From Malacoraja senta (lineage: Eukaryota): DNA of 64,000 bases. The notes under the pieces were generated by a model. It saw only the letters and a program-made list of their open reading frames with translations. It was not told where the DNA came from and ran no database searches. Position numbers and translations under genes: made by a program. Shown here piece by piece: positions 2,107 to 41,714 of the stretch (position 1 is its first letter; the number at the start of each line of letters is the position of its first letter). Location of the stretch: positions 2,294,001 through 2,358,000 of the forward strand of contig CM075988.1 of the NCBI GenBank assembly GCA_038087875.1, given 5' to 3'.

Positions 2107-3946
2107 ACATAGAAAATTCGGCCCTTCGAGCCAGTACCGCCATTCAATATAGCTGATATTCCAGAATCAGTACCCGGTTTCTGCTTTCTCCCCATATCCC
2201 TTGATTCCGTTAGCCCTAAGAACTAAATCTAACTCTTGAAAACATCCAGTGAATTGGCCTCCACTGCCTTCTGTGGCAGAGAATTCCACAGATTCACAAC
2301 TCTCTGGGTGAGACAGTGTTTCCTTGTCTCAATCCTAAATGGCCTACACCTTATTCTTAAACTGTGACTCCTGGTTCTGGACTCCACCAACATCAGGAAC
2401 ATTTTTCCTGCATCTAGCCTGTCCAAACCTTTAAGAATGTTATATATTTCGTTAAGATCCCCTCTCATCCTTCTAAATTCCAGTGAATACAAGCCCAGTC
2501 GACCCATTCTTTCATCATATGTCAGTCCCGTCATCCCAGGAATTAACCTGGTGAACCTACGCTGCACTCCCTCAACAGCAATAATGTCCTTCCTCAAATT
2601 AGACCAAAACTGCACACACAACTCCAGGTGTGGCCTCACCAGCGGCCCTGTACAACTGCAGTAGGACCTCATTGCTGCTAAACTCAAATCTTCTCGCAAT
2701 GAAGGCCAACATGCCATTAGCTTTCTTCACTGCCTGTTGTACCTGCATGCTTACTTTCAGTGAGTGATGTACAAGCACACCCAGGGGCGCCGCACTGAAG
2801 GCAGCCTCTGCCTACAGTCTGTTTGTTTTTCTATCTTTTTTTTATTTTTAGTTAGTTTTAAAAGTATGTGTCTTTAGTTTCTATAACTTTTCTATGTGGG
2901 GGAGGGGGGGTAGGGTAAGGGGGAAACCGTTTCCCAGTCACTTCCTGGCGAGGCCGCAACTATTCTCCGAGTCGCGTCCTCGCCCCCCTCCTCGCGGTCT
3001 ACCACCTGGATTGGAGCAGCCTTTCCTGCCGGGGACCGGACCAGAGCTCCAGCAGTGGCAGCGCAACGCTGGATTCACAGCGGAACGGGCGATGCCTTAG
3101 CTGGGATCGCCATGGAGGCTCCGGAGTGTTGGGCCTGCTGCATCTACATCGGAACTGCAGAGCTTCCAGCGCGGCCGGCGCTGTCTTCAACATTGCGGAG
3201 ACCTGGGGCCATTTGCCGAGGGCGGCCAGCGTTGAATCTCCACCCGGCGCGGCCTGTGGACTTCGGGAGCCGCGGACTCTGGTAGGAGGTGGCCGCTTCG
3301 GATGTCCAAGCCGCGGAGATGTCCTCCAGTCCCGACGTCGGACTTCCATCACCCCGGCAAGCGGGCTTGAACATCGGGCCGCCCGTAGTGCCCACAGCGG
3401 GGGCTCGGGAGCCCCCCGACCACGGAAGGACAACAGAGGAGGATGACTGCATTTTGGAGCCTTCCCTCACAGTGGGAAACTTTGATCCCACTGTATGGGG
3501 ATGTCTGTGTTAAAAACTATCGTGTTCTGTGCTCTTTATTATTCGTATGGCTGTATGGCGACCACACATTTCACTGTACAAATTGGTACATGTGACAAAT
3601 AAATGTATCTTGTATCTTGTAGGTCTCGTTGCACATCCCCTTTTCCTAATCTGACACCATTGAGATAATAATCTGCCTTCCTGTTCTCGCCACCAAAGTG
3701 GATAACCTCACATTTATCCACATTATACTCTATCTGCCATGCATCTGCCCATTCACCCAACCTATCCAATTCACCCTGCAGCCTCCTCGCAGCTCACACT
3801 GCCGCCCAGCTTTGTGTCATCCGCAAACTTGGAGATGTCACATTTAATTCCCTCGTCTAAATCGTTAATATATATTGTAAATAACTGGGGTCCCAGCACC
3901 GAGCCTTCCCACACTCCACTAGTCATTGCCTGCCATTCTGAAAAGG
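2107..3946 (-). mobile_element. CR1 LINE 3' fragment, interrupted at 2786-3620
   Basis: LVRPHLELCVQFWS, VQRRFTRLIPG, QRVVNLWNSLP and YNVDKCEVIHFG motifs; the CR1 sequence resumes at 3621. Confidence 0.9.
2786..3620 (+). mobile_element. GC-rich composite non-autonomous retroelement, copy A
   Basis: Inserted in CR1 with AGG at 2783-2785 and 3621-3623. Has ATGTGGGGG/GGGGAAAC and GCGGTCTACCA motifs, a hairpin at 3469-3494, and AATAAA plus a (TGTATCT)n tail. Confidence 0.7.
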
Positions 3947-4866
3947 ACCTGTGTACATGTGATCCATGGTCAGTGTGGACTCAGTGGGCCGAAAGGCCTG
4001 TTCCCACGCTGTGTGCTTAAACTCAAACATCAGCTATGCTCCAGCTCCGTGAATGGAGATCTACTGCTGCAATATTTTACATTTTTGCATCGGATAGCAT
4101 TATAGCTTTGTTTGATCCTGTCTCTCACAGCACGGGGACTAGTAGTCAAGAGTAGGGACTCTGCTTGATTATCCAGCCCAGCCCAGTCCAGAATGTTGCA
4201 ATGGGCTTTTGATGTACAGCTCAGTTATTCATTGATCTTTAGCTCAAGGGAGCTCCTTTCTCTGAATTGTTGGGCAAGCATACATTTTTCAAAGGTAGGA
4301 TTGATTTGTAATGAAGCAATTATATTTATTATCTTCAGCGTCTATTGTGAATGAGGGTGGAGGAGTATAAACTGCTTGGGGAAAGAAACGGATGCAGCGC
4401 CCCCTTTCCACCCTCACATTCCTTGTGAATCATCCAAATGCATTGATGTGGCTGTGTTGAAATTCTGGAAGGAAACCTGTGTGGGAATCTTAGGTGTGGC
4501 TGTGACTTTCTGACTGGCACAATACTTTAACTCAATTGTACAATGTTGCACGGATCCATTGAATGGATAGCATTTGAGATAACTGTGGATAACATTTAAA
4601 AGACACTGGATTCTTAAACTGAAGTAGAGATTAGTTGAGAATAAACAGATTAGACTTTATTACTAGTGAACAACTATTTTTATAACTCTGGAATTTCTGT
4701 CCATTGTGCTATCAGAGGTGGTGACCTGGACTGTGCACTGAAGCATTACTGTTTAAACAGTGAAGCGCAGCTTGTGTATCACATTTACATTGTTTGTAAC
4801 TAGAGAACACAGCTGAAAGCTGCTTTTGTCTGACACAATGAGGAGTTTTATAGTGTTGTTTGCATT

Positions 4867-4935
4867 GTAGCAGGATTCATGTAGCAGGATTAATATATTC
4901 ATGTAGCAGGATTCATATTTTCATCGAGCAGGATA
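4867..4935. repeat. Short degenerate tandem repeat (GTAGCAGGATT, about 4 units)
   Basis: AGCAGGAT recurs four times with variable spacers. Confidence 0.6.
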
Positions 4936-7034
4936 TAAGCTGAGGTATTTGTTTGAAAATAAGCATGCACAAAATGTTGTTGCTGTTATTTCAAGCTTTG
5001 AATTCATTGTGATGTAAGCTGACTGACTGACTGCCAGTCAAATGGGCTGCAGGGAGTGATGGAGTGGAAGAAAAGCAGTATAGTGTGGTCTGAATGACAC
5101 AACATTATTGAATTCTGACTTGCTGCTCAGGTAGCAGCATATCCTTTTCACTCTGTGCTGTGACCTATATTTTAATGAGTTTAATAAAGAATGACAGAGA
5201 GCACAATTTGCATTAGAGCTTGACTGGCCAGACATTTTCAGTTTGTCTTAAAGCTGTATGTTAAGTCAACTATGAAACTAAATTGAACAGGAGCGGAAGG
5301 AAAGCCTGAGAATCAACAGAATCAACACTTGATCTGCCCTGGAGTGACACTGCCAACCAGACACGTTACTTTTTCATGCCGCTATGCTATCTGGTATATA
5401 TCAGCAACTATTCTAAATTCAGGTGTGTACTGCAGTCATTGCAATGACAAAGTAGGGGTGGACTTTATTTTTTTTTTAAACGTAAAAAACTCCAATTCCG
5501 TCTTGTTATTTAGCAGCAAATGTCATGATGTTCTTCGGTCATTGACCTGAAACATGAATTAATTTCTATTTTATTTCAGTTCTCCAGCATCTGTATTAAT
5601 TTGCTTTTAGACTATGAAAATGTTTTTTCTGCATATTAATATATATGGTCATGGTAAACAGGAAAGATAAAATACATCAAACTGCTATCCAGAATATTCT
5701 TAACTGATGTGGTTCCTGGTACTTACTGCTAATAGGCTTGACACCTTTTGGATGTTGATATTTTTCAAAGAATTAAAAAAAGGCTCAATGTTCTCAAGTG
5801 CTCCAATGGCAACCAGAGTGCAACAAAAGTCGAAAGACCTCTGCGTTGAGACAGTGGCGATATTGTAGTTCAGGCAACCAGCAACCAACATGTTGCAATG
5901 AGGCGGAAATGCTAATACATTGTGCTTCAGCTATTTCCCTGTTGCTATGGTGAGTAATGTGACAAGTTGGAGTAGTTCTACTTATAAAACCAAGGCGTAT
6001 TGTAATCAGAGGGATGGGAATGCAGCTTTCTGTTAATAAGGAGCAGGGATTTTGATGGCTATTACTCCTGCAGGGCAAGAGGAGCTGCATTTCAGTCTGT
6101 TCAGCAGAGTAATTCTCAAAATGGCAAACACGAAACAAGATCTTACGTAAGATTTACACTTAAGTAATAAATTGGTTCATTGCATTGGTCTTCTGCTACA
6201 TTTTACTGGTCAGGTGTCCTTTCCTTTTCATTACACATTATTTCCCAGCTGCTTAAAGATTGCAAATTCAAGCTACTTCAATTGCTCTCTCCCTTTCGTG
6301 CCCGGATATTCTGCTCTCATATTCTGATACAGACTCAGGTTGGTTCTTGTTGGAAGCTTTTGTCGTGAAAGTTGTTTGCCTGAATGAAAAATCCCATAAC
6401 ATTGTTTGCCGGTGGCTTATTTGTCGCACAAAAGTAATATTGCTTCTAAGCACCTTTAACGTAATAAATGTCTTGGGAGGTGCCTCATATGGATGCAACC
6501 AAATCATAGTTATGGACAAGATCATCTTATTATACATCAACCTCTTCCTATCAGAAATCAATCAATTTCATGAAAGTTAGGTTTCTGCTATTTATTATTT
6601 TCTAATGACGTGTTCTAGTGAGCTTGTAATAAAATTGAATTGATGTGTTCTTCTGCTCAATATTTGGTCTGTCCTGTGATGAGTGCCTATTGGTGTAAGC
6701 TATGGGATGGCTAACTGATCGTGGGAATACTGCTTTAGTTTGTTTAGTGCCTTTTTAAAATTTGCTTACAATTGCATATTGGACGAGAAACAAAGTTCGC
6801 CTATCTAACAGAATGCAGATTAATACTCTGTTGTATTTTCAAAAATGATGCTTTGGTTGTGTTGGTGAGAAAGTCGCATGCAACTGTGGCAGGGTAAACT
6901 TTTAGAATGAGTTGAATTTCCATTTTAAATAAAAAGAGGCCATTCGGAAAATTATTTTTCCATTGTGAAAATGGAGCCGAATACTTGGGGACATAATCTT
7001 AGCCAAATGTTTCAGCTTGGATTGGTGAACAAGG

Positions 7035-7386
7035 TGTAAGAAGAAACTGTAGATGCTGGTTTACACCGAAGATAGACACAAAATGCTGGAGTAACTTAGC
7101 AGGACCGGCAGCATCTCTGGATAGAAAGAGATGTGTCCCACTGAGTTACTCCAGCATTTTGTATTTTTCTTGGTTTTTGAACAACATGGGAGCAAGCGTT
7201 GGTTACAACAGCCTCCACATCTTGACTGTTCTCCCCCTCAACAAAACAACAGAACCTGACAAAGGGTTCTGACACAAAACATCACCTATTCCTTTTATCC
7301 AGAGATGCAACCTGAGCCGCTGAGCTATTCCAACATTGCATAACTATTTTTGGTATAAACCAGCATCTGCAGTTCTTTCATACACA
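7035..7386. mobile_element. Penelope-derived short repeats, decayed, in inverted arrangement
   Basis: GATGCTGGTTTACACCGAAGATAGACAC at about 7052 and CCAGCATCTGCAGTTC at about 7360. Confidence 0.65.
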
Positions 7387-7595
7387 AACTATCAGGATTG
7401 ATCTTTTGCACCAATTTCATCTTCAATCAGCTCCCCAAACTACTGACTTGGCTATCTGCATCCTGTAAGTATTAGTGGAATCTCTTAATATCTGCTTTTA
7501 AATTTATTGTTTATGTTTATTTTATTTTTCCATTTTATATATTTAGTGGTTATGGATGATGGTAGTGTATTGCAACGATAGTCCATTCTGGAATA

Positions 7596-9254
7596 ATGCC
7601 CTCTATAATGTTTGGGACAAAGACCCATCATTTATTTATTTGCCTCTGCACTCCACAATTTGAGATTTGTAATAGAAAAAAATCACATGTGGTTAAAGTG
7701 CACATTGTCAGATTTTAATTAAGGCCATTTTTATACATTTTGGTTTCACCATGTAGAAATTACAGCTGTGTTTATACTTAGACACCCCCCCCCCCCCCCA
7801 TTTCAGGGCACCATAATGTTTGGGACACATTAATGTCATGTAAATGAAAGTAGTCATGTTTAGTATTTTGTTGCATATCCTTTGCATGCAATGACTGCTT
7901 GAAGTCTGCGATTCATGGACATCACCAGTAGCTGATTGTCTTCTCTGGTGATGCACTGCCAGGCCTGTATTGCAGCCATCTTTAGCTTATGCTTGTTTTG
8001 GGGGCTAGTCCCATTCCGTTTTCTCTTCAGCATATAAAAGGCATGCTCAAATGGGTTCAGATCAGGTGATTGACTTGGCCACTCAAGAATCGACCATTTT
8101 TTAGCTTTGAAAAATTCCTTTGTTGCTTTAGCAGTATGTTTGGGATCAATGACTTGCTGCAGAATGAACCGCTGACCAATGAGTTTTGATGCATTTGTTT
8201 GAACTTGAGCAGATAGGATGTGTCTATACACTTCAGAATTAATTGTGCTACTACCATCAGCAGTTATATCATCAATGAAGATATGTGAGCCAGTACCTTC
8301 AGCAGCCATACATGCCCAGGCCATAACACCCCCACCACCTGTATCACAGATAAGGTGGTATGCTTTGGATCTTGGGCAGTTCCTTATTTCCTCCATACTT
8401 TGCTCTTGACATCACTCTGATACAAGTTGATATTCATCTCATCTGTCCACAAGACCCTTTTCCAGAACTGTGGTTGCTCTTTTAAGTACTTCTTGGCAAA
8501 CTGTAACCCGGCCATCCTAATTTTACATGTAACCAGTGGTTTGCATCTTGCAGTATAGCCTCTGTATTTCTGTTCATGAAGTCTTCTGCGGACAGTGGTC
8601 ATTGACAAATCCACACCTGACTACTGAAGAGTGTTTCTGATCTGTCGGAAAGGTGTTTGGGGATTTTTCTTTATTATAGAGAGAATTCTTCTGTCATCAG
8701 CTGTGGAGGTCTTCCTTGTCTTGCCAGTCCCTTTGCGATTAGTAAGCTCATCAGTGCTTTCTTACTTCTTAATGATGTTCCAAACAGTTGATTTTGGTAA
8801 GCCTAAGGTTTGGCTGATGTTTCTAACAGTTTTATTCTTGTTTCTCAGTCTCATAATGGCTTCTTTGACTTTCGTTGACAACTTTGGTCCTCATGTTGAT
8901 AAACAGCAATAAAAGTTTCCAAAGTTGTTGGAAAGACTGAAGGAAAGACTAGGTGCTGAGAGCTCTCTTATACCTGCATTAAGGAGGCAATTAAACACAC
9001 CTGAGCAATTACAAATGCCTGTGAAGCCATGTTTCTCAAACATTATGGTGCCCTGAAATGGGGGGACTATGTATAAACACAGCTGTAATTTCTACATGAT
9101 GAAACCAAAATGTATAAAAATGGCCTTTATTAAAATCAGACAATGTGCACTTTAACCACACATGATTTTTTTCTATTACAAATCTCAAATTGTGGAGTAC
9201 TGAGGCAAATAAGTAAATGACGGGTCTTTGTCCCAAACATTATGGAGGGCACTG
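7596..9254 (-). mobile_element. Tc1 transposon with long IR/DR-type terminal inverted repeats (TIRs)
   Basis: TIRs of about 230 bp, each with two copies of ATAATGTTTG(G/A)GA. The right end is ...GAGGGCACTG|TA; the left terminal bases are eroded. Confidence 0.92.
7860..8894 (-). pseudogene. Tc1 transposase pseudogene
   Basis: Frameshifted pieces: VRRRLHE...WTDE, then WACMAAEGTG, QQVIDPKH (catalytic Asp replaced) and WPSQSPDLNPFEH...KGYATKY*. Confidence 0.9.
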
Positions 9255-9584
9255 TAGTTAAACAAAATATTAGGTATAGTTTTGATCCAGAATAGAACGG
9301 GCTCAAAGATATGTTTGTATGAAAGGGCCACCAAGCAGACTGGCTGTGGGAGGCATTGCAGTGCACCCCGACGATGGAGTGGGCCGCTGGAGGCCCTACA
9401 GCAACCTGGGTTCGGCTGGATATGGTCGAGTGCGTGGACTATGACTATGCTTGGCCAGGACAATCCTGCAACGCCTCCAGAACATCGGGCCAGGTTAAGA
9501 ACTCTGCATTTACAACAACTTTGATTTGAAAATGAACCCAAACTGGGTGACTCTTATGTACTGTCTTATGATAAGTTCATCAGT

Positions 9585-12447: not shown

Positions 12448-12556
12448 CTCTCTAATTGTCAGAAATAGTGCTTTAAAAAACCCAATTGGTGTTTAGCTGG
12501 TTCGTTGTGAAGGTGATATACTATGTCTTTGCCAGGAATGTTAGTAAAATGTACAA

Positions 12557-13590
12557 GGAGCCATCTTGAGGAACGGCTGCAAAACAGCAGCCGTCCGTTA
12601 ATTGTACTTTTTTACTAAGTTTTTTAGTTTTCTTTAAGTCTTTGTTTTTATTTATTTTGCCTTTTAATGTGGGGGGATCAAGGGGAAACCACTTCCTGGT
12701 CCCTACCTGGTCGGTGAGGCAGCCTTCTCTCCGGCTGCCCAGTCGACCCGTCCTCGCGGCCTACCAGCGGGTGTGGAGCGGCGTGGAGCGGCGTTTCCTG
12801 GCGGGAACCGCACAGCACCCTCAGCTTTGGTGGCGGCACGGCGCTGGAGCGCTACTGTGCAGCGGAGCGGGCGATGCCTTGCCTGGGTCGCCACGCTGGA
12901 CCGACGCGCTGGAGCTCCGGTGAGCTGGACCGCCGAGCTCAACACCTCCGGGACTGGAGCGACCATCTGCGGGCAGCGGCGCCGACTCCAACACCAGGAG
13001 CCTCGTGGCTCCAAATCGGCGCGGCCTTGTCGGCTTCAGGTGCTGCAGACGCCTGCGGGAAATCTGCCGTTCCAGCCGTAGTTGTGGCCTCTGGTGAGGG
13101 ATGCGGCCGTTCCAGGTGGCCCAGCTGCTGGAGGACTCTCCCGACGCCGGGGCTACATCACCCGGCGAGAACGGCCAGGATCATCGGGCCTCCGTAGAGG
13201 CAATAGTGGGGGCCTCATTTGGCCTGACTTTTTTGGGTGAACTGGGGCTGGGGACTGGACATTGTGCCTTCCCCCACAGTGGAAATCACTGGGGGGATGA
13301 TTTTTGTATGTAATTGTTTGTAATTGTATTTGTTAGTCTGTGTTCAGGATGGTAGTCGGAGGGGAGAGTGGACGCTGGCGTTAAATTGCCGCTGCTCTCT
13401 CCTCAAATTTGTGCTTCTGATTTTCTTTTTTTTGTGTTTTTGGAAGGAATTCTGTCCCTGATTTATGTATTGGTCTTTATAACCTATTTTTTTAAAATTC
13501 TGATTATATGTTTCCTATAAATCTCTGTAAGGTGTCCTTGAGACCTCGGTATAAGGCGCCCGTAAATAAAATCCATTATTATTATTATTA
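12557..13590 (+). mobile_element. GC-rich composite non-autonomous retroelement, copy B
   Basis: ATGTGGGGG, GGGGAAAC and GCGGCCTACCA motifs; hairpin at 13271-13296; tail GTAAGGTGTCCTTGAG...AAGGCGCCC...AATAAA (ATT)n. Confidence 0.7.
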
Positions 13591-14811: not shown

Positions 14812-15474
14812 AGGGCTTGTCCCACTTACGTGTCCTTGGCACGCAAATTACGCGACCTCGTGGTCACGTTGAGGTGAACGGGCATCGTATGGCCGCGCGG
14901 GGCCGGTCCCACTTAGAAGCGCGGAGGGGTATGTAGTTGTGCGTGACATTGCGCGGGGCTCCGAAATTTTTGTAGTGAACGAAATCTTCGCGCGCCAACG
15001 GCCTGTCGTGGAACTGATGGCCAAAGTGGGACAGGCCAAAGACCCTGGCGCGACGCAACGTCTCACCTTCAACAGCCGCAGAAGCAGGCATACGATCGCC
15101 GAACTTGGCCTGGGGCTCACAGTCGTTGCAGTCCGGATCCGCCCCCACTTTTACTCCCAGAGCGGGGCCGAAAAAAATTGAAGATAGACACAAAATGCAG
15201 GAGAGAAGCAATGGGTGACGTTTCGGGTCAAGACCCTTCTTTTCAGACTGAAGAAGAGTCGACACGAAACGTCACCCATTGCTTCTCTCCAGAGATGATA
15301 CCGGTCCTGCTGAGTTACTCCAGCTTTGTGTCCATCTTCAAATGACCTCATGCGCTCCAGACGGCTGTGCGTACGCATGTAATCGCGCCCGACCTTCGTG
15401 GGACCGTCGCGGCTCAATGCGACCACGAGGTCGCGTAATTTGTGTGCCAAGGACACGTAAGTGGGAAAGGCCCT
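14812..15474. mobile_element. PIF/Harbinger-type MITE with a Penelope-derived palindrome inserted at about 15178-15341
   Basis: TTA|AGGGCTTGTCCCAC...GTGGGAAAGGCCCT|TTA; TIRs of about 60 bp; 3-bp TTA TSD. Confidence 0.85.
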
Positions 15475-15990
15475 TTAGTTAAAATATTTCCTCAGTTTAT
15501 TGCAGATGGTCTGACTCAACCCATTGAACTTCATCTTGACTAAATCTAGATTCTATGCTGTCCTGTGCTCCTCCCTTTTAAACACAATCTTTTAAGCACA
15601 ACACTATTATACTTGCCATTAGATAGATATTTATATATTGTCACCTAAATGTGTCTCATTAATCATAATTAAATCTAATGCGGGCTGTCACATTGTTTGT
15701 ACTGCTCTGTGCTTGCTAATTTATGATTAACGGGAATAGTGAATGTACCTACTGTAATTTTAAAGTCATCTCGGAGAACCTGCATATTTATAGTTTTTTT
15801 TCATGTTAAACATCCTGCTCATGGAGCAACTTCTGAAGTGTAGTCACAGATGTAATTGAGGAAACTCCGCAGCTGATTTGTGCACAGCAAAGCTTCAAAG
15901 GCACTGGGCTAAAGAGTGGTTGGTCAGCTTTTGGTTTGTTGGTTAAAGAACAAACACTGGTCGGGATGATGGGAGAACTCTTCATGTCAT

Positions 15991-16120
15991 TGTGTAGGAA
16001 GGAACTGCAGATGCTGGTTTAAACCGAAGATAGACACAAAATGCTGGAGTAATTCAGCGGGACGGGCAGCATCTCTGGATAGAAGAGATGGGTGATGTTT
16101 TTGGTCGAGACCCTTCTTCA
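15991..16120 (-). mobile_element. Penelope-derived short repeat, single unit
   Basis: GGAAGGAACTGCAGATGCTGG...GGTCGAGACCCTTCTTCA. Confidence 0.75.
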
Positions 16121-16563
16121 TGTCTTTCATTAGTGCCACACATGACAGTGGGTAGCATCTCAGTTTAGTCTCATTTAGTACTTGGTACATCACTTCATTT
16201 CTTCAGTGAAAGTACCAACTTGATTATGTGCTGATATGTATGGAGAAGACATTAAATCTGCAGCCTGTTAACTGGGTGAGTATAATGACTTTGTCATTAT
16301 TGATTCTAATAGAATGAATATGGGAATTAGAAGATGAAAAAGACAGATTCATCTGGTTCACCTTTTAACATCTTGCAGTTCACAAAAAACAAGTGGGATT
16401 TATAGCAAATTACATTAGTCAATTACTGTTCAACGGACCAGACAGGAGGAAAGATTAGAGGAGTTTAGCTCATCCTCTGAAAGTAGATGTAGAAATTTCT
16501 TTGCACAACTCCAAATGAAAAGCATTGTGCAGTTGAAAAGTGGCATAAGCCAAAATGAAGTAA

Positions 16564-19434: not shown

Positions 19435-19555
19435 TGACACAAGCCATGCTTGTGTTTTGAGCTGTAACAGTATTGAGAATATGAGCTGTTAACAATAAAA
19501 GAGTACTATATGGAGGATTGAGTCTATTAAGGACTAAAGTAAGAACTTGCATATA

Positions 19556-24570: not shown

Positions 24571-24597
24571 GTTATCAGCAACTTCTCTGTTCCTTTA

Positions 24598-25270: not shown

Positions 25271-26133
25271 ATTTTTTTTAATTTTTTTTTTATTTAACAT
25301 TATACTTATGGGCGCCTTTCAAAGACTCTCAAGGACGCCTTACAAAATTTAATAATCAGGTTACAAAACATATAAGCAGAATAAAACAAAAAACCAAATA
25401 TAGTAGGGACAACACACAATTCAAAGAGAGAGCAGCGGCAGCTAAACGCGCCAGCGTTCACTCTCCCTCCCGGCAGCCATCTTGGAGACAAAACATTAAA
25501 AACACCTTTTAACATTGAACATCCACCACAGTGACTCCTACACACTCCTCACTGTGGTGGAAGGCGAAATATAGTTTGTCCTTCCCCTTGCTCTTCCGCA
25601 GTCATGGGCCTCGAGCCCCCGTTGACGGGACGATCTTGACTCCCGTAGCCGGTGTTCAAGCCCTCCGCATCGAGGCGCTCCACTCCCGCATTGGGGGGTT
25701 GTCAGCTCCCCCCGCGCCAGGTGAACGAACCTCGCGTCGGGGCTGGTCGAGCCTTCCGCGGCGTTGGAGCTCCCGACTAGCCTCGCCCTGAGACTGCGAG
25801 CCCTTGATGATAAAGTCCGCGGTGGTCACGGTGGGAGCGATCCCAGGCAAGGGATCTGCTCCGATGTAAGTCCATGCCCCGCGGTGGGGCTCACGACAGT
25901 CCGAGGAGGCTTCCAGCTCCAGCGATGGTAGGCCGCAGAGCCCGGAGAATGTGATCCGAAAATTAATCACATCTCCGGGAAGGTAAGAACTTGAAAAAAG
26001 TTTCCCCCGAACCTCTCCTCCCTCCCCCACATAAAACATACCAAAAGAACATTAAAACAAACTTCTAACAAACTAAAAAATAACAAAAGCAGTGAAAAGA
26101 CAACAGACTGCCGATAGGGCTGCCATCTTCCCC
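25271..26133 (-). mobile_element. GC-rich composite non-autonomous retroelement, copy C
   Basis: Starts GGGAAGATGGCAGCC on the minus strand. Body is closely similar to copy E and tail module to copy B. Perfect 12-bp hairpin at 25523-25560. Confidence 0.75.
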
Positions 26134-26154
26134 AGTGGCCCAGAAATACCAACA

Positions 26155-27290
26155 ACAGACTACTGACCGACATCCACTATAAACCCCCCACTGACTCCCA
26201 TGGCTATCTGGACTACACTTCTTCCCACCCTGCTTCCTGTAAGGACTCAATCCCCCTACTCCCAATTCCTCCGTCTATGCCGCATCTGCACCCAGGATGA
26301 GGTGTTCCAAACTAGGGCATCGGAGATGTCCTCATTCTTTAGGGAATGGGGGTTCCCCTCTTTGACTATAGATGAGGCTCTCACCAGGGTCTCCTCTATC
26401 TCGTAGCTCCGCTCTCACTCCCCATCCCCCCCACTCGTAACAAGCACAGAGTCCCCCTTGTCCTCACCTTCCACCCTACCAGCCGTCATATACAACAGAT
26501 AATCCTCCGACGTTTTTGCCACCTCCAACAGGATCCCACCACTGGCCACCTCTTCCCATCTCCTCTCCTTTCTGCTTTCTGCAGACACCGCTCCCTCTGT
26601 AACTCCCTGGTTAATTTGTCCCTTCCCACCCAAACCACCCCCTCCCCTGGTACTTTCCCTTGCAACCGCAGGAAATGCTACACTTGTCACTTTACCTCCC
26701 CCCTAGACTCCATCCAAGGACCCTAGCAATCTTTCCAGGTGAGGCGGAGGTTCACCTGCACCTCCTGCAACCTCATCTATTGCATCCGCCGTTCTAGGTG
26801 TCAACATTGGTGAGACAAAGCATAGGCTTGGCAATCGCTTCACCCAACACCTCCGCACAGTTCGCATTAACCAACCTGATCTCCCGGTGGCTCAGCACTT
26901 CAACTCCCCCTCCCATTCCGAATCCGACTTTTCTGTCCTGGGCCGCCTCCATGGCCAGAGTGAGTCCCACCGCAAATTGGAAGAGTAGCACCTCATATTT
27001 CACTTGGGTAGTTTACACCCCAGGGGTATGAACATTGACTTCTCCAATTGCAGGTAGTCTTTGCTTTCTCTCTCCTTCCCCTCCCCTTCCCAGCTCTCGC
27101 ACAGCCCACTGTCTCCGCCTCTTCCTTTCTTCTTCCCGCCCCCCCCCCACCCCCACATCAGTCTGTAGAAGGGTCTAGATCCGAAACGTCACCTATTCCT
27201 TCGCTCCATAGATGCTGCCTCACCCGCTGAGTTTCTCCAGCATTTTTGTCTACCTTCGATTTTTCCAGCATCTGCAGTTCTTTCTTAAAC
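26155..27290 (+). mobile_element. Penelope-like element, 5'-truncated (RT C-terminus plus decayed GIY-YIG region)
   Basis: PYSQFLRLCRIC, NLIYCIR- and GETK-encoding segments; 9-bp TSD ATACCAACA at 26146-26154 and 27291-27299. Confidence 0.88.
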
Positions 27291-27902
27291 ATACCAACAG
27301 ATGCTTCTTGACCTGCTGAATTCCTACAGCAGTTTTGTTTTGCCTAACTATTCTCTCGACAAGCCGTGGTATTTTTAAAGATGTGTACGAAGTATATCCT
27401 TGGCCCTCTACTCCTGCTCATCCTTCAGGACTCTGCATTTTAATGTATGTTGTCACTTTTCTTCAAAATTGTATCACTTCACACCTTGTATTATTTTTCA
27501 CCTACTAATTGTTTCCATATTGACTAACTTCCAGTATCATCTTGTAATCTATTATTATGGTCTCCTGTATTCACCACACAATCGCAATAAGTGTTCTCAG
27601 CATGGGAAACACTGTTCTCCACCATACTCTAATCTGACAATAATGGTCTACCTCTACTCTAAACTTTCTTATCCATGTTGCCATTTCAATTGCTTTAGCG
27701 TGGGATTTCAAGTGCCTTCCAAAGATCCACACAGGTAAAATTTGTTATGTTCCCATCAACGATTCTCTTTGCTACTACAGCAAGCAATTCAATCATGTTA
27801 ATTAAACACAATTTGCTTTTAACAAATCTGTGCTCGTTCTTATTATCAATTGAAACATTTCCACACGTCTGTTACTGTTTTCCCTGACTATTGTTCATAA
27901 AA

Positions 27903-28113
27903 CGGCGCGGTGGCACAGCAGTAGAGTTGCTGCCTTACAGCTCCAGACACCCGGGTTCGATTTGGACTTCGGGGGTTGTCTGTACAGAATTTGTATGTTG
28001 TCCCCTTGACCTGCGTGGATTTTCTCCGGGATCTCCGGTTTCGTCCCACACTCCAAAGACGTACAGGTTTGCAGGTTAATTGGCTTGGTATAATTGTAAA
28101 TTGCCCCTAGTGT
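27903..28113 (+). mobile_element. tRNA-derived SINE cut by the gap
   Basis: A-box-like TGGCACAGCAGT and B-box GGTTCGATT; body matches 50036-50332. Confidence 0.85.
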
Positions 28114-28313
28114 NNNNNNNNNNNNNNNNNNNNNNNNNNNNNNNNNNNNNNNNNNNNNNNNNNNNNNNNNNNNNNNNNNNNNNNNNNNNNNNNNNNNNNN
28201 NNNNNNNNNNNNNNNNNNNNNNNNNNNNNNNNNNNNNNNNNNNNNNNNNNNNNNNNNNNNNNNNNNNNNNNNNNNNNNNNNNNNNNNNNNNNNNNNNNNN
28301 NNNNNNNNNNNNN
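28114..28313. other. Assembly gap (200 N)
   Basis: Run of N. Confidence 0.99.
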
Positions 28314-28339
28314 GAACCACAGGAATGAGAAACTCTGTG

Positions 28340-28844
28340 CAGGAAAGAACTGCAGATGCTGGTTTAAATTGAAGGTAGGCAAAATGCTGGAGTTACTCAG
28401 CGGGAGAGGCTGCATCTCTGAAGAGAAGGAATGGGTGACGTTTCAGGTCAAGACCATTCTTCAGAGGCGACTTTGCAGGTCGTTATCTCAGTCCCCTGAA
28501 GGAGGCGGATCATTCCGGTACTGTTCGGCTCCTCTCAGAGGCCCGACAGGAGTGCCCGCCCACCACATTTTTGGTAGATTAGGGAAATCTTGGGTTGACA
28601 GGGTCAGCCTCGGCAGTCCTACCAGGAAAGCGGTGCCTCAGCCCAGCAGGCGGCCACCAGTCCCACCCTCATTAGGACTTCCGTGGACAACTTCCGAGGG
28701 TTACCCATATGGGAATGCCATTTTTGCCATAAATTTAATTTGGCATTTAATATTTGTTTTTTTTTTAGTCTGAAGGGTCTCGACCCGAAACGTCACCCAT
28801 TCCTTCTCTCCAGTGATGCTACCTGTCCCGTTGTTACTCCATCA
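28340..28844. mobile_element. Inverted Penelope-derived arms enclosing about 300 bp of unrelated sequence
   Basis: Arms about 28341-28463 (-) and 28768-28841 (+); flanking AGGAATGAGAAACTC at 28321-28335 and 28845-28859. Confidence 0.6.
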
Positions 28845-29088: not shown

Positions 29089-29931
29089 AGGGACACAGCA
29101 ATGTCATGTAAATGAAAGTCATTTTGTTGCATCAGCTGTAGAGGTCTTCCTTGGCCTGCCAGTCCCTTTGCAATTAATAAGCTCACCAGTGCTCTCTTTC
29201 TTCTTAATGATGTTCCAAACCAAAGTTGATTTTGGTAAGCCTAATGTTTGGGTGATGTCTCTAACAGTTTTATTCTTGTTTCTCAGTCTCATAATGGCTT
29301 CTTTGACTTTCATTGGCACAACTTTGATCCTCATGTTGATAAACAGCAATAAAAGTTTCCAAAGGTGATGGAACTATTTTGGTTTCACCGTGTAGAAATG
29401 ACAGCTGTGTTTATACATAGTCCCCCCCCCCCCATTTCAGGGCACCATAATGTTTGGGACACATGGCTTCACAGGCGTTTGTAATTGCTCAGGTGTGTTT
29501 AATTGCTTCCTTAATGCAGGTAAAGAGAGCTCTCAGCACCAATTTCCTCCAGTCTTTCCATCACCTTTGGAAACTTTTATTGCTGTTTATCAACATGAGA
29601 ACCAAAGCTGTGTCAAAGAAGCCATTATGCGACTGAGAAACAAGAATAAAACTGTTAAGAGACATCAGCCATACTAAACATGAATACTTTCATTTCCATG
29701 ACATTGCTGTGTCTCAAACATTATGGTGCCCTGAAATGGGGGGTCTTTGTATAAACACTGCTGTAATTTCTACATGGTGAAACCAAAATGTATAAAAATT
29801 GCCTTAATTAAATTCTGACAATGTGCACTTTAACCACATGTGATTTTTTCTATTACAAATCTCAAATTGTGGAGTACAGAGGCAAGTAAATAAATAATGT
29901 GTCTTTGTCCCAAACATTATGGAGGGCACTG
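29089..29931. mobile_element. Two internally deleted Tc1 derivatives of the 7596-9254 family in opposite orientations
   Basis: KEAIMRLRNKNKTV is encoded on both strands; TIR ends ...GAGGGCACTG|TA. Confidence 0.85.
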
Positions 29932-30935
29932 TATCCACCCTCAGTATAGGTATCACTTCCCCACAGGCAATATTCAATATTTCATCAATTCCACAATCCC
30001 TACCCTTTTCTCTACCCTCTTGCACTGAGATACAGTGGTCCATAAAAACTATTCCAAATTTCTGTTTACGAGATTCTCGCTGAGGAGCCATTTATACCTG
30101 CCTGGTGTTATCAACACAGGACACTTACCATGTGATCTGAACCCGTTTTTAAGATGAGATATGTTGCAATGTTTCCTTTCCTTCAACAGTCCTTTTAGAT
30201 TTACTTGAACCAGACTCAATGTCCTGAATCTCCAGTCCATTAGCTTGTCTGCAGTAATGGGTTCTGTCATGGAGCATATTGTTGATCTATACCACAGAAG
30301 AAAATCTGCCATTCAGTATTTCATTCTAAAATTTGATCTGCCTTCTCCAACCTGATGTCTTTAATGTACTTCATTATGCATTCCAATGTTTCAACTTCAC
30401 CATTCCAGGACTGGTTTATAAGAAGGTATAAATCAATATAGAACATGGAACTGTACCACACAGGAGGCCCTTCAGTCCACAATACTTGTGCTAAACATGA
30501 CGCCAATTCTCCTCTGCCTGCAAGTTATCCATATCATTCAATTCCCTGCATATCCATGTGCTTATGTAAAAGCCTCAAACATCAGTACCGTATCTGCTTC
30601 CACCACCAACCATCGCAGTGGGTTAGAGTCTGTTGTCTCTGTACTGTACACTGCACAATGACAATAAAGTTGAATCTGAATCTGAACCTACCACCATTGC
30701 AGGCCCATACGAAGCTTTTCAAAAAGGGGGGTGGCATGACAGGATTACGAACATTTTAACGTGAAATAATGTGCACGCAGCGCACATCATGAGTGCGAAG
30801 CGTGAATTCCCTCGATGCCGGGGTCCAGGGCCCGCTTAAGGGCCCTGGAAGCTCAGGGGTTTTAGATGCTAGGATGCATTCTGAGCCCTATTTTGGAGCC
30901 TTTTTGCACCATATTTATGACCAATATTTCAGAAA

Positions 30936-32420: not shown

Positions 32421-32422
32421 AT

Positions 32423-35570: not shown

Positions 35571-36610
35571 TCCCCATCCTGGATCAGTCCAATCAGGCTG
35601 GTGTCGTCCACAAACTTGAGAAGCTTGACACAGGTTTCTGTGGAGGTGCAGTCATTGGTGTAGCGAGAGTAGAGGAGAGGGTTGAGTACTCAGCCTTGCG
35701 GTGCTCCTATGCTGAGCGTTTGCGGGTCCGAGATGTGCTTTCCCAGCCTCACATGCTGCTTCCTGTCTGTCAGGAAGCTGGTGATCCACCGACAGAGGGG
35801 TTCAGGCACAGTCAACTCGGAAAGTTTGGAGCGTAGTAGCTCTGGCACAATGGTGTTGAATGCAGATCTAAAATCAACAAACAAAATCCTAGCGTAGGTC
35901 TAGGTCTAGGTGCTGGAGGATGAAGTGCAGGCCCAGATTGACTGCATCATCCCACAGATCTATTGGGCCAATATGCAAACTGCAGAGAGTCCAACAGGGG
36001 GATTGTGATATTTTTCAGCTTGGCCAGCACAAGCCTTTTCAAGGGTCTTCATGACTACAGAGGTCAGTGCGACAGGCCTGTAGTCATTAAGACAAGTAAT
36101 CCTTGCCTTTTTGGGTATAGGAACAATAGTGGAGACTTTGAAGCAGACAGGCACAGTACATGTTTGCAGGTACTGGTTAAAAATGAGTAATTGGGTGTGA
36201 AGTGGTGATTGGAGTGGGGTGGGTGTAGAAGGGCCCAGTGTTTGCAGACTGAGGTCAGGCTGTGAGTGGGTGTGAAGTATTGGTTGGGGTGGGAAAGGGT
36301 CCACTCTTTTCATACTGGAGTCTTGCCTTAAGTAGGTGTGTAGTGGTGAATGGGAAGGAGAGGGTGCAGGGTCCATTATTTGCAGACTGGGGTCTGGCTG
36401 TGTTTGTTGGGGAGGGGTTAGCAGGGTTACGTTTCTGATTTTCAAACCTGCAGTAAAACTCATTCAGGTCGTTGCTCAGCTGACGATTGTCCAAATAGCA
36501 GGGGGCTTTCCTCTTGTAGTTGGTAATTTCTTGCATGCCCTTCCAAACTGAAGGTCACTAACTGAGTCCTTTCCTTGGCAGCTCTGGTTCCTCTTCTCAG
36601 CTCTTTATCG
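35571..36610 (-). mobile_element. Rex1-clade LINE fragment with deletions
   Basis: [41 protein letters not shown]. Confidence 0.85.
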
Positions 36611-38238
36611 ATTAGGCTATCTTTTAACTCTTTAACGATTAGGCTATCAGCTTGACGCATATTTGCCCCCACCCACTTGATCTCGAAATTGAAATGTTAC
36701 ATCTCTATATAATGATCCCATTAAAATGTGTATTTATGTCACAAACTATGGAATTCATGTTTCAATATTGTTATCAAGGAAAAGAAAGGAGTTTCAATTG
36801 TTTGATATTGTTTAATATTATTCATATGGAGAAAATATAATAGCTCTAAAACCTACCATAATTTTGCAATGTCACTAAAGATAATCCCACTTTCCCTCTG
36901 TCCTCCACCCCTCTCTCCCCTCCTTCCCCTCTCTCTCCCCTTCCCATCCCTCCCCCTCTCACATTGCCCCCTCTTTCACCTTCCTCCCTCCCACGCAGCG
37001 TTGGAGGGCGAGATGCGAGGGTCCGCAGGGGGGGGGGGAAGAAAGGCGTGGGCCGGCGGTAGTGGGGGGTGGCGCGGGCGGAACATGGCGTGGGACCAGC
37101 CGGGGGGGTGGTATCGTGGGCCCGACGGCGGGAGAGGCAAAGGCCAGGCCGGAGCGGCGTCTGTTGTCGAGGTTACGGCCGCTGACAGTCGTTCCCACTC
37201 CCGCCAGGCGACGGGAAAATGGTGGCGTGGGCGTAAGGTGTAGTGGGCCCAGCGGGGGGGCGGCGGGGGAGGCGAGGGCCTGACGGGTTCAGATTCAGTC
37301 GTTCCCGATCCTGCCCGGCAACGGGAGAACGGTCTCCCCGGACCACCCGCCCGCCAGCAGTGGACCCGCTCCCTGGACAGCAGGCGATGGGTAGACACCG
37401 CAGCGACCCCCCGCCCACCCAGGATAAGAAACAGACTCCCCCTCCCGCAACGCACTACTTACCCAGAGTAGACACGAGGCATCGAGGAGATCTCTGATTG
37501 TGTGGAGCAAAGGCTCCTCTAGTATCATTGGTGTGGAGTGAAAACTGATCTGATCTGATCCCGCCCGGACCCACTGCGCACGCGCGGTGAGACAGCGTCA
37601 TGGTACGTCCCGACTGCATTACTGGCTTCCCCCAACTGCGCAGGCGTGGATGGTCACGATTTTTTTTCAGCCAGTGGGCCGGAGCCAGCATTTCGGGTAA
37701 ACACTGATTGCGCTCCAATTTATTTTTCCTTGGGAATTTGTCCTACTCTGTGAAAAAAAGGGGGTGCGACGCACCCAACGCACCCCCCCTTCGGACGGCC
37801 ATGCATTGGGTAAAAAAAACCTGCCTTCCGCATATTTAAACCTTCCCCCTCTGATCTTAGTTATGCTCTAGTATTTGGCCTAACCTCGAAGCTCCAGAGA
37901 GAACAATCCAAGTTTACTCAACCTCTCTTTGTAAGGTAGGAAGGAACTGCAGATGCTGGTTTACACCGAAGATAGTCACAAAATGCTGGAGTAACTCAGT
38001 GGGACAGGTCTCGACAGGAAACATCACCCATTGCTTCTATCCAGAGACGCTGCCTGTCCCGCTGAGCTCTCTTTTGCAGCAAGTACCCTCTAATCCAGGC
38101 AGCATTCTGGTAAATCTTTTCTGCACCCTTTCAATGCCTCCATGTCCTTCCTGTAATGGAGCAAGCAGAACTGCACACAGTTTTCTAAAATAGATCTCAG
38201 TAAAGTCTTAAGCTGCAACGTGGCTTCCCGAGATTTAA

Positions 38239-39081
38239 GTAAAGTAAGTTTATTTATATAGCACTTTTCAATCAAATCACTGAAGCCAAAGTGCTTTACA
38301 GAGAGAATTATCCATATAAATGAAAAATAAAAAAGGTAGAATAAAAAAAAAAGACAGGACACACAATTAGAGATTCAACACGAACATCCCCCCTACAGCA
38401 GAGTCGACACTCTCCACTGTGAGGGAAAGGCACCAAAATGTCCAGTCCTCCTCCTAGTCCACCCGAAGTCGGGGCCAGTTTGAGGCCTCCGCAGCCAGTC
38501 GCCGCAACGGCAGCCCGATGTTGTAGACCCAGCCGCTGGGAAGCTGGAACACCAGCATCGGGTGGAAAGTCCTCAGCGGATTGGAAGTGTCTGGAGCGGC
38601 CGCTCCCTCCCCGGAGACTGCGACGCCCGTAGTCTTCAGGCCGCGCCGGTTGGAGCTTCGACTCTGACTCCGCGGTGTTTTCGATCCAGCGCCGCCCGCC
38701 CACGGCGGGATGCCCTCAGACCGCAGCCCGCGGCTGCTCGATGTTGGTGGTCGGCGGTCATAGCACTCCGGAGCGGCGACCCGGCAAGGCATCGCCCGCT
38801 CCGTGTTGGTGTCCCAGCGCTGTGCCGCCGAAGCTGTGGTCCCGGCAGGAAACGACGCTCCAGCCCGATGGAAGGCCGCATGGGGAGAGCGAAGATGCGA
38901 TTTGGAGGAAAACCGCATCTCCGACCAGGTAGGACTGGGGTTAAAGCAGTTTCCCCCCACCCCCCACATAGAAAGAATAGACCTCCAAATAAAAATTATA
39001 GACAATAAAAAGGGTTAGAGGACGGACTGCAGGCAGGCAGCCCGCACAACCGGCGCCCACTCCTGCACATCCGCCATCTTG
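38239..39081 (-). mobile_element. GC-rich composite non-autonomous retroelement, copy D
   Basis: Starts CAAGATGGCGG; TTTAA at 38234-38238 and 39082-39086; tail TGTAAAGCACTTTG...AAAGTGCTATATAAATAAA. Confidence 0.75.
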
Positions 39082-41714
39082 TTTAAATAATGCTACGAAC
39101 ACTGAAGGCGAGCATTCCATACACCTTTATTAACACTCTCCATTTTCAGGGAGCTGTGGATACAAATATTTCTCTGAACATTAAACTGTTAGGATCTTGC
39201 CAGTAGCAGTATCTATTCTCCGCACATTCAATCTCCCAAATTGCAACACTGTACCACACCCCTGTTCGGTTTGTTTTATGTGGGGGGAGGGGGGATGGGA
39301 TTGGGGGGAACTTTTTTTCAAGTTCCTACCTTCCCGGAGATGTGATCAATTTTTCGGATCACATTCTCCGGGTTCTGCGGCCTACCATCGCTGGAGCTGG
39401 AGGCCTCCTCGGACTGACGTGAGCCCCACCGCGGGGCGTGGTCTTACCATCGGAGCGGATCCCTTGCCAAGGATCGCTCCCACCGCGGACTGCGGACTTA
39501 CCATCAAGGGCTCGCAGTTTCGGGAGAGGTTAGTCGGGAGCTCCAACGCCACAGAAGGTTCGACCAGCCACGATGCGAGGTTCGATCGCCCAGCACGGGG
39601 GAGCTGACAACCCTCCGATGCAAGAGCTGAACGCCTCGACACAGAGGGCCAGAAGGCCGCCGGCTACGAGAGTGAAGACCGTCCCGTCAATGGGGAGGGC
39701 TCAAGGCCCCCGACCGAGGAAGAACAAAAGGAAGGACTTGAACTTTATTTCACCTTCCATCACAGTGAGGAATGTGTAGGAGGCACTGTGGTGGATGTTC
39801 ATGTTAAAATGTGTTTTTGAGTCTGTTGCTTTTAATTGTATGACTGACCTGGCCAGTGAAATTCCTCGTATTTCACTGGCCAGGAGAAGCCTGGAGAAGG
39901 TATTGGACCAAGGGTTGAGATTTTTGATTGGAGAAAGGGTAACTTTGAGGAGATGCGAAAGGATTTAAAAGGAGTGAATTGGGACATTTTGTTTTATGGG
40001 AAGGATGTAGAAGAGAAATGGAGGACATTTAAAGGTGAAGTTTTAAGAGTACAGAATCTTTATGTCCCTGTTCGGTTGAAAGGAAATAGTAATAATTGGA
40101 AAGAGCCATGGTTTTCAAGGGAAATTGGACACTTGGTTCGGAAAAAGAGAGAGATTCACAATAATTATAGGCAGCATGGAGTAAATGAGGTGCTTGAGGA
40201 GTATAAAGAATGTAAAAAGAATCTTAAGAAAGAAATTAGAAAAGCTAAAAGAAGATATGAGGTTGCTTTGGCAAGTAAGGTGAAAGTAAATCCAAAGTAA
40301 ATACAGCTATATTAATAGCAAAAGGATAACGAGGGATAAAATTGGTCCATTAGAGAGTCAGAGTGGACAGCTATCTGCAGAGCCAAAAGATATGGGGGAG
40401 ATATTGAACAATTTATTTTCTTCGGTATTCACCAAGGAGAAGGATATTGAATTATGTGAGGTAAGGGAAACAAGTAGAGTAGCTATGGAAACTATGAGAT
40501 TCAAAGAAGAGGAAGTACTGACACTTTTGAAAAATATAAAAGTGGATAAGTCTCCAGGTCTTGACAGGATATTCCCTAGGACATTGAGGGAAGTTAGGGT
40601 AGAAATAGCAGGGGCTATGACAGAAATATTTCAAATGTCATTAGAAACGGGAATGGTGCCGGAGGATTGGTGTACTGCGCATGTTGTGCCATTGTTTAAA
40701 AAGGGTTTTAAGAGTAAACCTAGCAATTATAGACCTGTTAGTTTGACGTCAGTGGTGGGCAAATTAATGGAAAGGATACTTAGAGATAATATATTTAAGC
40801 ATCTGGATAAACAGGGTCTGATTAGGAACAGTCAACGTGGATTTGTGCCTGGAAGGTCATGTTTGACTAATCTTCTTGAACTTTTTGAAGAGGTTACTAG
40901 GGAAATTGATGAGGGTAAAGCGGTGGATGTTGTCTATATGGACTTCAGTAAAGGGCCTGTCCCACGGGCATGCGACTCCATGCGGCAAGCGCGACCTAAC
41001 CGGAAGCAAGGGCCGTGCAGGGGCCGCACGGAGGTCGCGGGGCCGGTCCCACTTCGATTGCCGGAGCCGTATGGAGTTGTGCGGAGCTGGTCCCGACATC
41101 GCGCGGGGCTCCGAAAAACTGACACTGTTCAAAAATTCCGTGCGGCAACGGCCTGCCGCCCCGCCTCAACGCCATACGCAGCCACATCAAGGCCGTGCGC
41201 ACCGCCTCGACGCCGTACGCACCGTCTTGACGTCAGTCGACCTCCGCGCGGCCCCCGCTCCCGGTTTTGTAGCGCTTGCCGCATGCTGGTGGGACCGGCC
41301 CTGTACGGGGATCACTCGACCTCCGCGCAGCCCCCGCTTCCGGTTAGGTTGCGCTTGCCGCATGGAGTCGCATGCCCGTGGGCAGGGACGGCCTTAGGAG
41401 GTGCGGGGCCCAATTGGGAACAATTTTTGTGAGTCCCAGCTTGCCAGCCAAGGTCAGTAGAATCATAGCAATATAAATAAAGTCTATTATAGACTTTATA
41501 TCTCTATGGTAGAATGGAAAATAATCAAAATGTGCGCTTAAAAAGTGCCTGCGAGTTAATGGACCAAACAGATCTAAGCTACATTTTAATATAAAATTGC
41601 ATACATGTAAGCCTACAGGTAATAAACAAAATGTGTAGATCACCTCTGAAAAGTACATAGTTACAATACCACTTGTTTTAGTGACTGTGAATTGCAAAAA
41701 AAAAAACAACAAAA

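Follow-up and report, generated by a model that had tools for sequence, protein, structure and literature searches.

The GC-rich, non-coding elements in a 64,000-nt stretch of the Malacoraja senta genome (hereafter, the window) raise the question of whether they belong to one retroposon family that changes its LINE partner by replacing its 3' tail, and of what drives such a family if it carries no tRNA-like promoter. A preliminary description made from the sequence reported five elements with an ordered layout of T-rich leader, CpG-rich body, hairpin and LINE-type tail. All five are real, lie where they had been placed and have this layout, and a whole-family profile finds just these five bodies in the window, which is repeat-dense.

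Elements in the window

The features are as follows; hairpin coordinates were counted by eye.

2786..3620, plus strand: element A, full length, with a Rex1-type tail and a short tandem-repeat end, sitting within a CR1 fragment
2786..2825, plus strand: head of A, a GC-rich 5' box followed by a conserved head motif, with a putative promoter role
2947..2984, plus strand: hairpin 1 of A, a conserved stem of 13-15 bp with compensatory changes across the superfamily
3464..3500, plus strand: hairpin 2 of A, the 3' hairpin that closes the body
12557..13590, plus strand: element B, full length, with an L2-type tail and an extra 3' module
12709..12748, plus strand: hairpin 1 of B
13345..13590, plus strand: 3' module of B, a second head-like box and hairpin, a T-rich linker and an L2-type end (13527-13590)
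25271..26141, minus strand: element C, full length, combining a C/E-type body with the L2-type module also seen in B
25941..25979, minus strand: hairpin 1 of C
25271..25484, minus strand: 3' module of C, with the L2-type end at 25271-25343 (tail best matched by L2 ends, z 5.2)
38239..39081, minus strand: element D, full length, with a second L2-type tail (38239-38299)
38890..38923, minus strand: hairpin 1 of D
39263..39871, plus strand: element E, truncated at both ends, joining a C/E-type body to a Rex1-type tail; a short inverted copy comes next, up to ~39883
46028..46077, plus strand: probable sixth copy, consisting only of an E-type tail end, at the 3' terminus of a CR1 element and overlooked in the preliminary description
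54186..56224, minus strand: 5'-truncated Rex1 LINE fragment, an example of the presumed partner clade

The ends first given for A, B and D were correct. The 5' start of C lies about 8 nt further 5' (~26141), and the limits of E shift slightly, with a 5' truncation at ~39263-39265 and a 3' truncation at ~39871. In contigs of two public sequencing runs the E-type tail runs on in full past 39871, as loose ends. The CR1 sequence on both sides of A (2116-2785 and 3621-3950) is otherwise uninterrupted. Across 37600-40300, no joint skipping D is among those listed for the contigs of the two runs, a result that is uninformative on insertion polymorphism. Elements A, B, C and D are 835-1034 nt long and many other copies 550-750 nt; the longest ATG frame has a median of 92 codons, so the elements are without a long open reading frame.

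A single, deeply diverged body

The bodies of B and C had been described as different, and bodies in general as separate modules that are reassorted. Instead, one ancient homologous body is common to all five elements. When the body tree is split in two and a profile is made of each half, members of the opposite half are recovered at E < 1e-5 in 38 of 38 cases and in 27 of 29, with no detections among reversed controls; B is one of the two weak cases (E 0.0025). The body is ~420-600 nt in size and its median pairwise identity is 58% among 60 copies. Within this range C and E are close relatives, with 85% identity over 560 nt and different tails, as the preliminary description had it. Of 67 bodies, 21 contain short tandem arrays, and a recurrent 7-mer is found 2.8 times per body compared with 0.4 in shuffles.

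As judged from the aligned copies, two hairpins are conserved in the body, the first with compensatory changes. In hairpin 1, 89% of cells are paired (40-50% when the pairing is slid), and 12 of 14 pairs have two-sided changes, in counts not corrected for relatedness. Its many G-U pairs indicate the sense strand; folding of the whole body is without strand specificity. Hairpin 2 is 97% paired, with a two-sided change in just 1 of 11 pairs, and its 5' arm is the pattern by which loci were selected. Selection on the RNA may keep these hairpins, for stability, export or loading onto a LINE particle.

Abundance and insertion sites

The genome contains 33,118 exact matches to a 15-nt motif located at the 3' hairpin, as against 29 for the reversed control, and the family has at least 33,000 copies in this genome. 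Evenly spaced stretches totalling 580 kb hold 13 elements, equivalent to ~22 per Mb and ~1% of bases. Among 98 loci picked by the motif, 56 are full length and the remainder are mostly 5'-truncated; the number of tandem repeats at the 3' end differs between copies. One metagenome match was rejected as a chance hit to the motif only.

Elements A, B, C and D are each multi-copy, the best 40 scored matches being 87-100% identical out of 4,097-8,249 candidates, and D represents the youngest family (97-100% identity among its 30 best copies). Some matches represent the same locus more than once, with 3 such groups in a set of 10 flanks. There are many copies of each combination of body and tail, at many loci with differing flanks, which the preliminary description would take as support. 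The target-site duplications that it also called for are not clear: duplications of 7 nt or more flank 9 of 77 copies, and overlaps at target sites are short (mean 4.2-4.8 nt versus 2.9-3.6 nt in mismatched flanks).

Tails resemble those of resident Rex1 and L2 LINEs

For the 98 loci, the tail is matched best by Rex1 at 82 (74 of them scoring above all 30 shuffles), by L2 at 9 (5 above) and by CR1 at 2, with no end found at 5. Thus about one copy in ten is L2-like at its 3' end and most are Rex1-like. The tail of A is best matched by Rex1 3' ends (z 6.5) and that of D by an L2 3' end (z 11.7). The tail of B did not beat shuffles against six L2 ends; a better-matching L2 family lies outside that set. 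LINE families with matching 3' ends are co-resident in the genome, as had been proposed. Rex1 reading-frame ends continue into tail variants resembling those of the elements, and an L2 with a D-like end is present. In an L2 family with the B/C end, the end of the reading frame and the tail are covered by all 40 scored matches (95-100% identity), and a Rex1 family with an E-like end is likewise covered by 40 of 40 (91-100%). The element tails resemble the LINE tails without being identical to them.

These resemblances suggest that the elements likely borrow the enzymes of Rex1 and L2 LINEs. The results support a non-tRNA, non-autonomous system that would depend on LINEs. In the mechanism we envisage, a LINE protein would bind the tail stem-loop and the element RNA would then be copied by target-primed reverse transcription.

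Tail exchange founds lineages

The proposal that the elements change LINE partner by exchanging tails is upheld by two patterns. The C/E body bears both kinds of tail (18 and 12 of 30 copies), and the 3' module common to B and C, already recognized in the preliminary description and 77% identical over 78 nt, is carried by two branches that lie far apart in the body tree (AU P = 4e-66). More broadly, the tree has three places where L2-type tails fall within groups of Rex1-type tails, a topology from which at least three switches of partner are deduced. Swaps among Rex1 types are not established, the Rex1 tail sub-types being labelled by noisy patterns.

The free mixing of modules suggested earlier is not what we observe; exchange appears as a rare, lineage-founding event. 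Within the C/E group, each head type goes with its own tail type (13 and 11 of 30 copies), and the classified heads include no crossed case. In 96 of the 98 loci picked by the motif, a T-rich linker and a tail, whether whole or interrupted, come after hairpin 2; the other two loci are non-members. The B/C module has 3,061 matches, and in the first 30 of these hairpin 2 lies directly upstream in 26, the other 4 being truncated in or at the linker, and the L2 end lies 166-203 nt downstream in 29. No standalone module was seen in these 30 loci, one of which has an ambiguous truncation. Template switching or recombination could replace the sequence 3' of hairpin 2 and so give a lineage a new partner, after which the new combination of body and tail would amplify as a family of its own.

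Origin and transcription of the body

The strongest competing account, which we nonetheless consider unlikely, is that the elements are bipartite deletion derivatives, their body having been the long 5' UTR of a LINE that is extinct or unsampled, with new tails acquired later. Bipartite LINEs that RNA polymerase II transcribes, as well as tail exchange that breaks the link between 5' and 3' ends, are on record (Kojima 2018, PMC5786205). Full-length Rex1 and L2 copies in this genome start with the same short box as D, although across 60 heads the likeness to LINE 5' ends beat shuffles in just 9. Full-length recovery reached two of many LINE families, and for the L2 family bearing the B/C tail none of 10 stretches extended to the 5' end. 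Against this account, the reading frame opens at about nt 4, leaving no UTR, in the two full-length Rex1 copies and in the three full-length L2 copies displayed, and these 5' ends give no match to the body profile. The linker and tail that follow hairpin 2 also argue against it, and the ORF-free bipartite elements of PMC5786205 derive from RTE, Ingi, Vingi and R2 only. Of the earlier reading as a non-tRNA, SVA-like or bipartite non-autonomous system, the non-tRNA and non-autonomous parts hold; the bipartite part does not hold for the two LINE families with recovered 5' ends.

Still more doubtful is an origin of the body in a structured non-coding RNA of the cell, or in the polymerase II gene for it, to which LINE tails were added. 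Such an origin would suit the strong structural conservation seen despite the low identity between bodies, and SINEs headed by snRNA, snoRNA or 28S sequence are described in passages of PMC7245038 and PMC4844689. However, no Rfam match reaches the gathering score in the window, the 10 weak matches in 20 loci do not recur as a family on the body, and the continuous divergence into many lineages suggests selection acting on the element itself. A possible resemblance to U1 snRNA and to HDV-like ribozymes in one part of the body was dropped for want of Rfam support in the 20 loci. No Rfam ribozyme recurs on the body; a single CPEB3-like match, below the gathering score, lies in a flank.

A run of five or more T on the sense strand normally ends a polymerase III transcript. 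Such a run lies at nt 40-200 in 59 of 60 copies, a spaced pair of A and B boxes occurs in none of the 60, there is no tRNA or 5S similarity, and a tRNA scan found no tRNA in the window, in agreement with the earlier failure to find A and B boxes. These results make it very improbable that the elements are SINEs that polymerase III transcribes from an unusual or upstream promoter, even if their size and tail logic are SINE-like and polymerase III transcription is part of the SINE definition given in passages of SINEBase (PMC3531059). Because tRNA, a recurrent Rfam family and the box pair are lacking and T-runs come early, transcription by RNA polymerase II is likely. The head of ~45 nt may be an internal polymerase II promoter in which the factor-binding box turns over. 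Each named promoter box is found in just 4-7 of 60 heads, using simple patterns and no background control.

Chance nesting of unrelated repeats, which a repeat-dense window might invite, is refuted by the recurrence of each combination at many loci with different flanks and by the constant surroundings of the B/C module.

The best explanation, and one we hold to be probable, is a tail-switching, non-tRNA retroposon superfamily with a single homologous structured body, Rex1- or L2-like tails and a putative polymerase II head.

Relation to known retroposons

Passages of PMC11481361 and PMC5786205 describe the conserved-domain SINE superfamilies (CORE, V, Deu and Meta) as many families that share one middle domain and use several LINE partners. 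The elements described here likewise use one body with several LINE partners. Going by the descriptions, they are set apart by the absence of the tRNA- or 5S-derived polymerase III heads of those superfamilies, by early T-runs, by the body of ~420-600 nt and by mainly Rex1-type tails. Shark SINEs with L2 tails are on record in part of PMC5499810. SINEBase families, in the portion of PMC3531059 that covers size, span 75-662 nt without the tail (mean 253). A length below about 700 bp is expected of a SINE, a size that A, B, C and D exceed and that falls within the 550-750 nt range of many other copies. With SINEs as defined there the elements share LINE-like tails, 5' truncation, tandem-repeat ends, the lack of a long reading frame and a presumed dependence on a partner, but they lack a tRNA, 5S or 7SL head with internal polymerase III boxes.

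Bipartite non-autonomous LINEs (RIME, NARTc, RTE-N, Bov-A and WALLSI3) are similar in being non-coding, likely transcribed by polymerase II, and LINE-derived at the 3' end with LINE-like first nucleotides. They consist, however, of 5' and 3' pieces of one LINE, from RTE, Ingi, Vingi or R2 only (PMC5786205), whereas the body here matches no recovered LINE (one Rex1 and one L2 family at full length) and the presumed partners are Rex1 and L2. The bird SINEs BuceSINE and ManaSINE2 also place a GC-rich 5' part that is not from an RNA gene on a LINE-derived tail; passages of PMC4844689 present them as single lineage-specific families on bipartite AviRTE tails, and describe no superfamily or switch of LINE clade.

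In their composite, GC-rich and non-autonomous nature, and in their probable polymerase II transcription, the elements also resemble SVA and LAVA.

SVA and LAVA are primate elements transcribed by polymerase II, and the 3' part of LAVA differs from that of SVA. SVA is mobilized by L1 via poly(A), is built of Alu-like, VNTR and ERV parts and has long target-site duplications. The elements here have no poly(A) or L1 tail, no SINE- or ERV-derived part and no long duplications, and the likeness to SVA drawn earlier is a loose analogy only; the short tandem arrays noted above are found in some of the bodies.

We found no description of the element in a literature search that lay mostly outside subscription journals and supplements. 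We tentatively raise the possibility, which we put below even chances, of an undescribed class of LINE parasite: a SINE-sized superfamily driven by polymerase II, whose self-contained promoter and structured RNA core would come from no small-RNA gene and no partner LINE, and which would have lasted long enough to diverge to ~58% identity by replacing both promoter box and tail across two LINE clades.

Implications

The success of SINEs is usually tied to polymerase III heads, and it is an open question where conserved SINE bodies come from and what purpose they serve. The natural pairs C and E (same body, different tail) and B and C (same tail, different body) are ready constructs for studying recognition by Rex1 and L2 and the role of the body. 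If our reading is correct, CpG-rich candidate promoters would be scattered across the genome, and a superfamily with copies in the tens of thousands, making up ~1% of the genome and keeping a structured core without a polymerase III head, would represent a second route to such success.

Elements, copy number and setting

The window is dense in CR1, Rex1, L2 and DNA-transposon fragments. Within it, inspection of each sequence recovered the five non-coding elements of the preliminary description (A to E), and alignment reveals blocks common to all five along the whole body. These elements and the other repeats of the window are:

2786-3620, plus strand: element A, inserted in a CR1 fragment whose flanks overlap by 3 nt
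12557-13590, plus strand: element B
25271-26141, minus strand: element C
38239-39081, minus strand: element D
39263-39871, plus strand: element E; its tail is cut within 39850-39883, where the preceding bases recur as a short perfect inverted copy, with CR1 sequence after it
580-910, 7034-7390, 15200-16125, 27158-28844, 49801-51174 and 60426-60524: very abundant repeat of ~130 nt, often in inverted pairs
7597-9256, 19538-20199 and 29090-29933: transposase fragments with inverted repeats, which we take to be Tc1/mariner-like
41971-44314: transposase fragments, presumably hAT-like, split by a CR1 element
53889-57833: oppositely oriented pair of Rex1 fragments that have ~1.1 kb in common at 85% and join near 56000-56300

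When A and the bodies of B, C and D were used as queries against the 1.94-Gb assembly, each returned 40 scored places at 87-100% identity (the best 40 of 4,097-8,249 candidates). D is young, since identity is 97-100% among its 30 best copies. Genome-wide, a 15-nt degenerate motif of the 3' hairpin is matched exactly 33,118 times, compared with 29 for the reversed control. Based on the family profile, 58 evenly spaced 10-kb stretches contain 13 elements, equivalent to ~22 per Mb and 1.06% of bases. At the insertion sites, where target site duplications had been anticipated, flank overlaps are short. With approximate element boundaries, these reach at least 7 nt in 9 of 77 copies, versus 1-4% in mismatched flanks, and average 4.2-4.8 nt, versus 2.9-3.6 nt.

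Anatomy and RNA structure

From 5' to 3', the layout comprises a ~45-nt head, a T-rich leader, a G-run, hairpin 1, a GC-rich body, hairpin 2 (which closes the body), a T-rich linker and a LINE-type end carrying a tandem repeat of variable length among copies. The body is 62% GC, with a CpG observed/expected ratio of 0.91 and a 10th-90th percentile length of 423-595 nt; in the median copy the longest ATG frame spans 92 codons.

In hairpin 1, 88.9% of cells are paired across 38 copies (slid controls, 40-50%), and two-sided changes occur at 12 of 14 pairs, counts being uncorrected for relatedness. The frequent G-U pairs point to sense-strand RNA. Hairpin 2 is paired in 96.7% of cells (35 copies) with one covarying pair only, and its 5' arm is the pattern by which copies were selected. 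Whole-body folds of 12 copies beat shuffles equally on both strands. A search for tRNA and Rfam families found neither, consistent with the non-tRNA character first proposed. In flanking DNA upstream of one element (L347:322-384), a CPEB3-ribozyme-like match scores 29.4 bits, short of the gathering threshold (35).

One homologous body

The sample comprised 98 loci from among the first 100 places on contig C1 that match the motif, a set not chosen by family and biased toward copies whose motif is intact. Inspection identified 96 of the 98 as members. Judged by where the profile starts and by length, 56 are full length; most of the remainder are 5'-truncated. For 60 full-length copies, pairwise identity has a median of 58%. 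Body profiles built from each half of the tree detect the opposite half at E<1e-5 (38/38 and 27/29) and no reversed sequences. Thus, we conclude that what had been described as different bodies are diverged homologues. Two loci, L237 and L241, are internal-deletion forms, one each, in which the head and hairpin 2 are kept ~150-200 nt apart and most of the GC body is missing.

Tails and probable partner LINEs

In the loci retrieved, the sequence behind Rex1 ORF ends takes the form of several 3' stem-loop variants paralleling the tails of the elements. For each of the 98 loci, the terminal 60 nt were scored against 36 Rex1, 6 L2 and 11 CR1 ends, with 30 shuffles. The best-matching end is Rex1 in 82 loci (74 of them scoring above every shuffle), L2 in nine (five above) and CR1 in two; in five loci no end was found. 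Individually, the tails of A (z 6.5) and of an E-type copy (z 6.3) match Rex1 and those of D (z 11.7) and C (z 5.2) match L2; B's tail does not beat its shuffles against these ends. The B/C end, searched as a pattern, has 5,177 genome matches; of 20 places retrieved, one immediately follows an L2 ORF end. This L2 ORF and B/C-tail stretch recurs (40/40 scored matches at 95-100%, some being duplicates of one locus), as does a Rex1 family with an E-like end (40/40 at 91-100%). The proposed match of tails to L2 and Rex1 3' ends is supported, the element tails being similar, not identical, to the LINE ends. Two loci (L312, L337) have a further tail type, with a short GC stem ahead of the terminal repeat.

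The proposed exchange of tails is also borne out. With the C body alone as query, 30 loci divide into 18 that end in the L2 module and 12 with the E-type Rex1 tail. Head type tracks tail type in 13 and 11 of these, the other six being truncated or unclassified; two pairs among the 30 have common flanks. On a tree of 67 bodies, tails left out, L2-type tails occur at three places amid Rex1-type tails (the B, D and C groups). The topology test rejects a tree that keeps the 11 module-bearing (B/C) rows together (p-AU 4.4e-66) and one that unites all 13 L2-tailed rows (p-AU 2e-4). Because the tree is midpoint-rooted, the direction of exchange is read from nesting only.

The B/C module, the 3' part common to B and C, has 3,061 pattern matches; in 30 loci it was never found alone or ahead of an ORF. 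Since it starts with a second head-like box, the module could represent a short, old element that became fused on. At L292:1175-1340, an E-type body and linker are followed by a different Rex1-type stem-loop, possibly a swap inside the tail itself.

Head and putative promoter

A spaced A and B box pair is found in none of 60 copies, a run of at least five T lies within nt 40-200 in 59 of 60, and the heads conserve one motif behind 15-25 variable nt. By simple patterns uncontrolled for background, this variable stretch has boxes like YY1 (forward 5, reverse 7), ETS (7) and CTCF (4) sites among the 60 copies. The absence of pol III features makes pol II the likeliest, still putative, route of transcription. 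Full-length Rex1 and L2 copies open with D's YY1-like box, and their ORF opens at ~nt 4. In L162 and L164 (Rex1) and L361, L363 and L375 (L2), the ATG of this short box apparently opens the single ORF, so these LINEs appear to have almost no 5' UTR. Head-to-LINE similarity is above shuffles in only 9 of 60 copies.

Relation to known systems and proposed mechanism

Tail exchange among SINEs is documented (Kojima 2018, PMC5786205), and the same paper notes proposed SINEs whose GC-rich heads are of unknown origin. Other sources describe such heads in bird SINEs (PMC4844689, PMC7245038), tRNA SINEs that combine one domain with several LINE partners (PMC11481361), holocephalan SINEs with L2 tails (PMC5499810) and one tRNA SINE partnered with Rex1 (PMC3747384). 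The elements work like a conserved-domain SINE superfamily, yet their heads are not SINE heads; SINEs are defined by pol III in PMC3531059. A bipartite LINE is a less likely reading; ORF-free bipartite LINEs are reported from RTE, Ingi, Vingi and R2 only (PMC5786205). The body profile finds nothing where the full-length Rex1 and L2 copies begin; what it does match in the 40 loci concerned are separate insertions. For the B/C-tailed L2 family, a search of 10 stretches did not reach the 5' end. The literature searched holds no description of this element, and the families may already stand in Repbase/Dfam under other names.

We infer transcription, protein recognition and a function of the core as follows. 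A pol II transcript would likely start from the head, its core would fold, a Rex1 or L2 protein would bind the tail, and target-primed reverse transcription would copy the RNA. A tail-switching, non-tRNA retroposon superfamily is well supported as real, its copy number, homology, structure and tail pattern on the tree being shown. In it, rare replacement of the sequence 3' of hairpin 2 would found a new family with a new partner.
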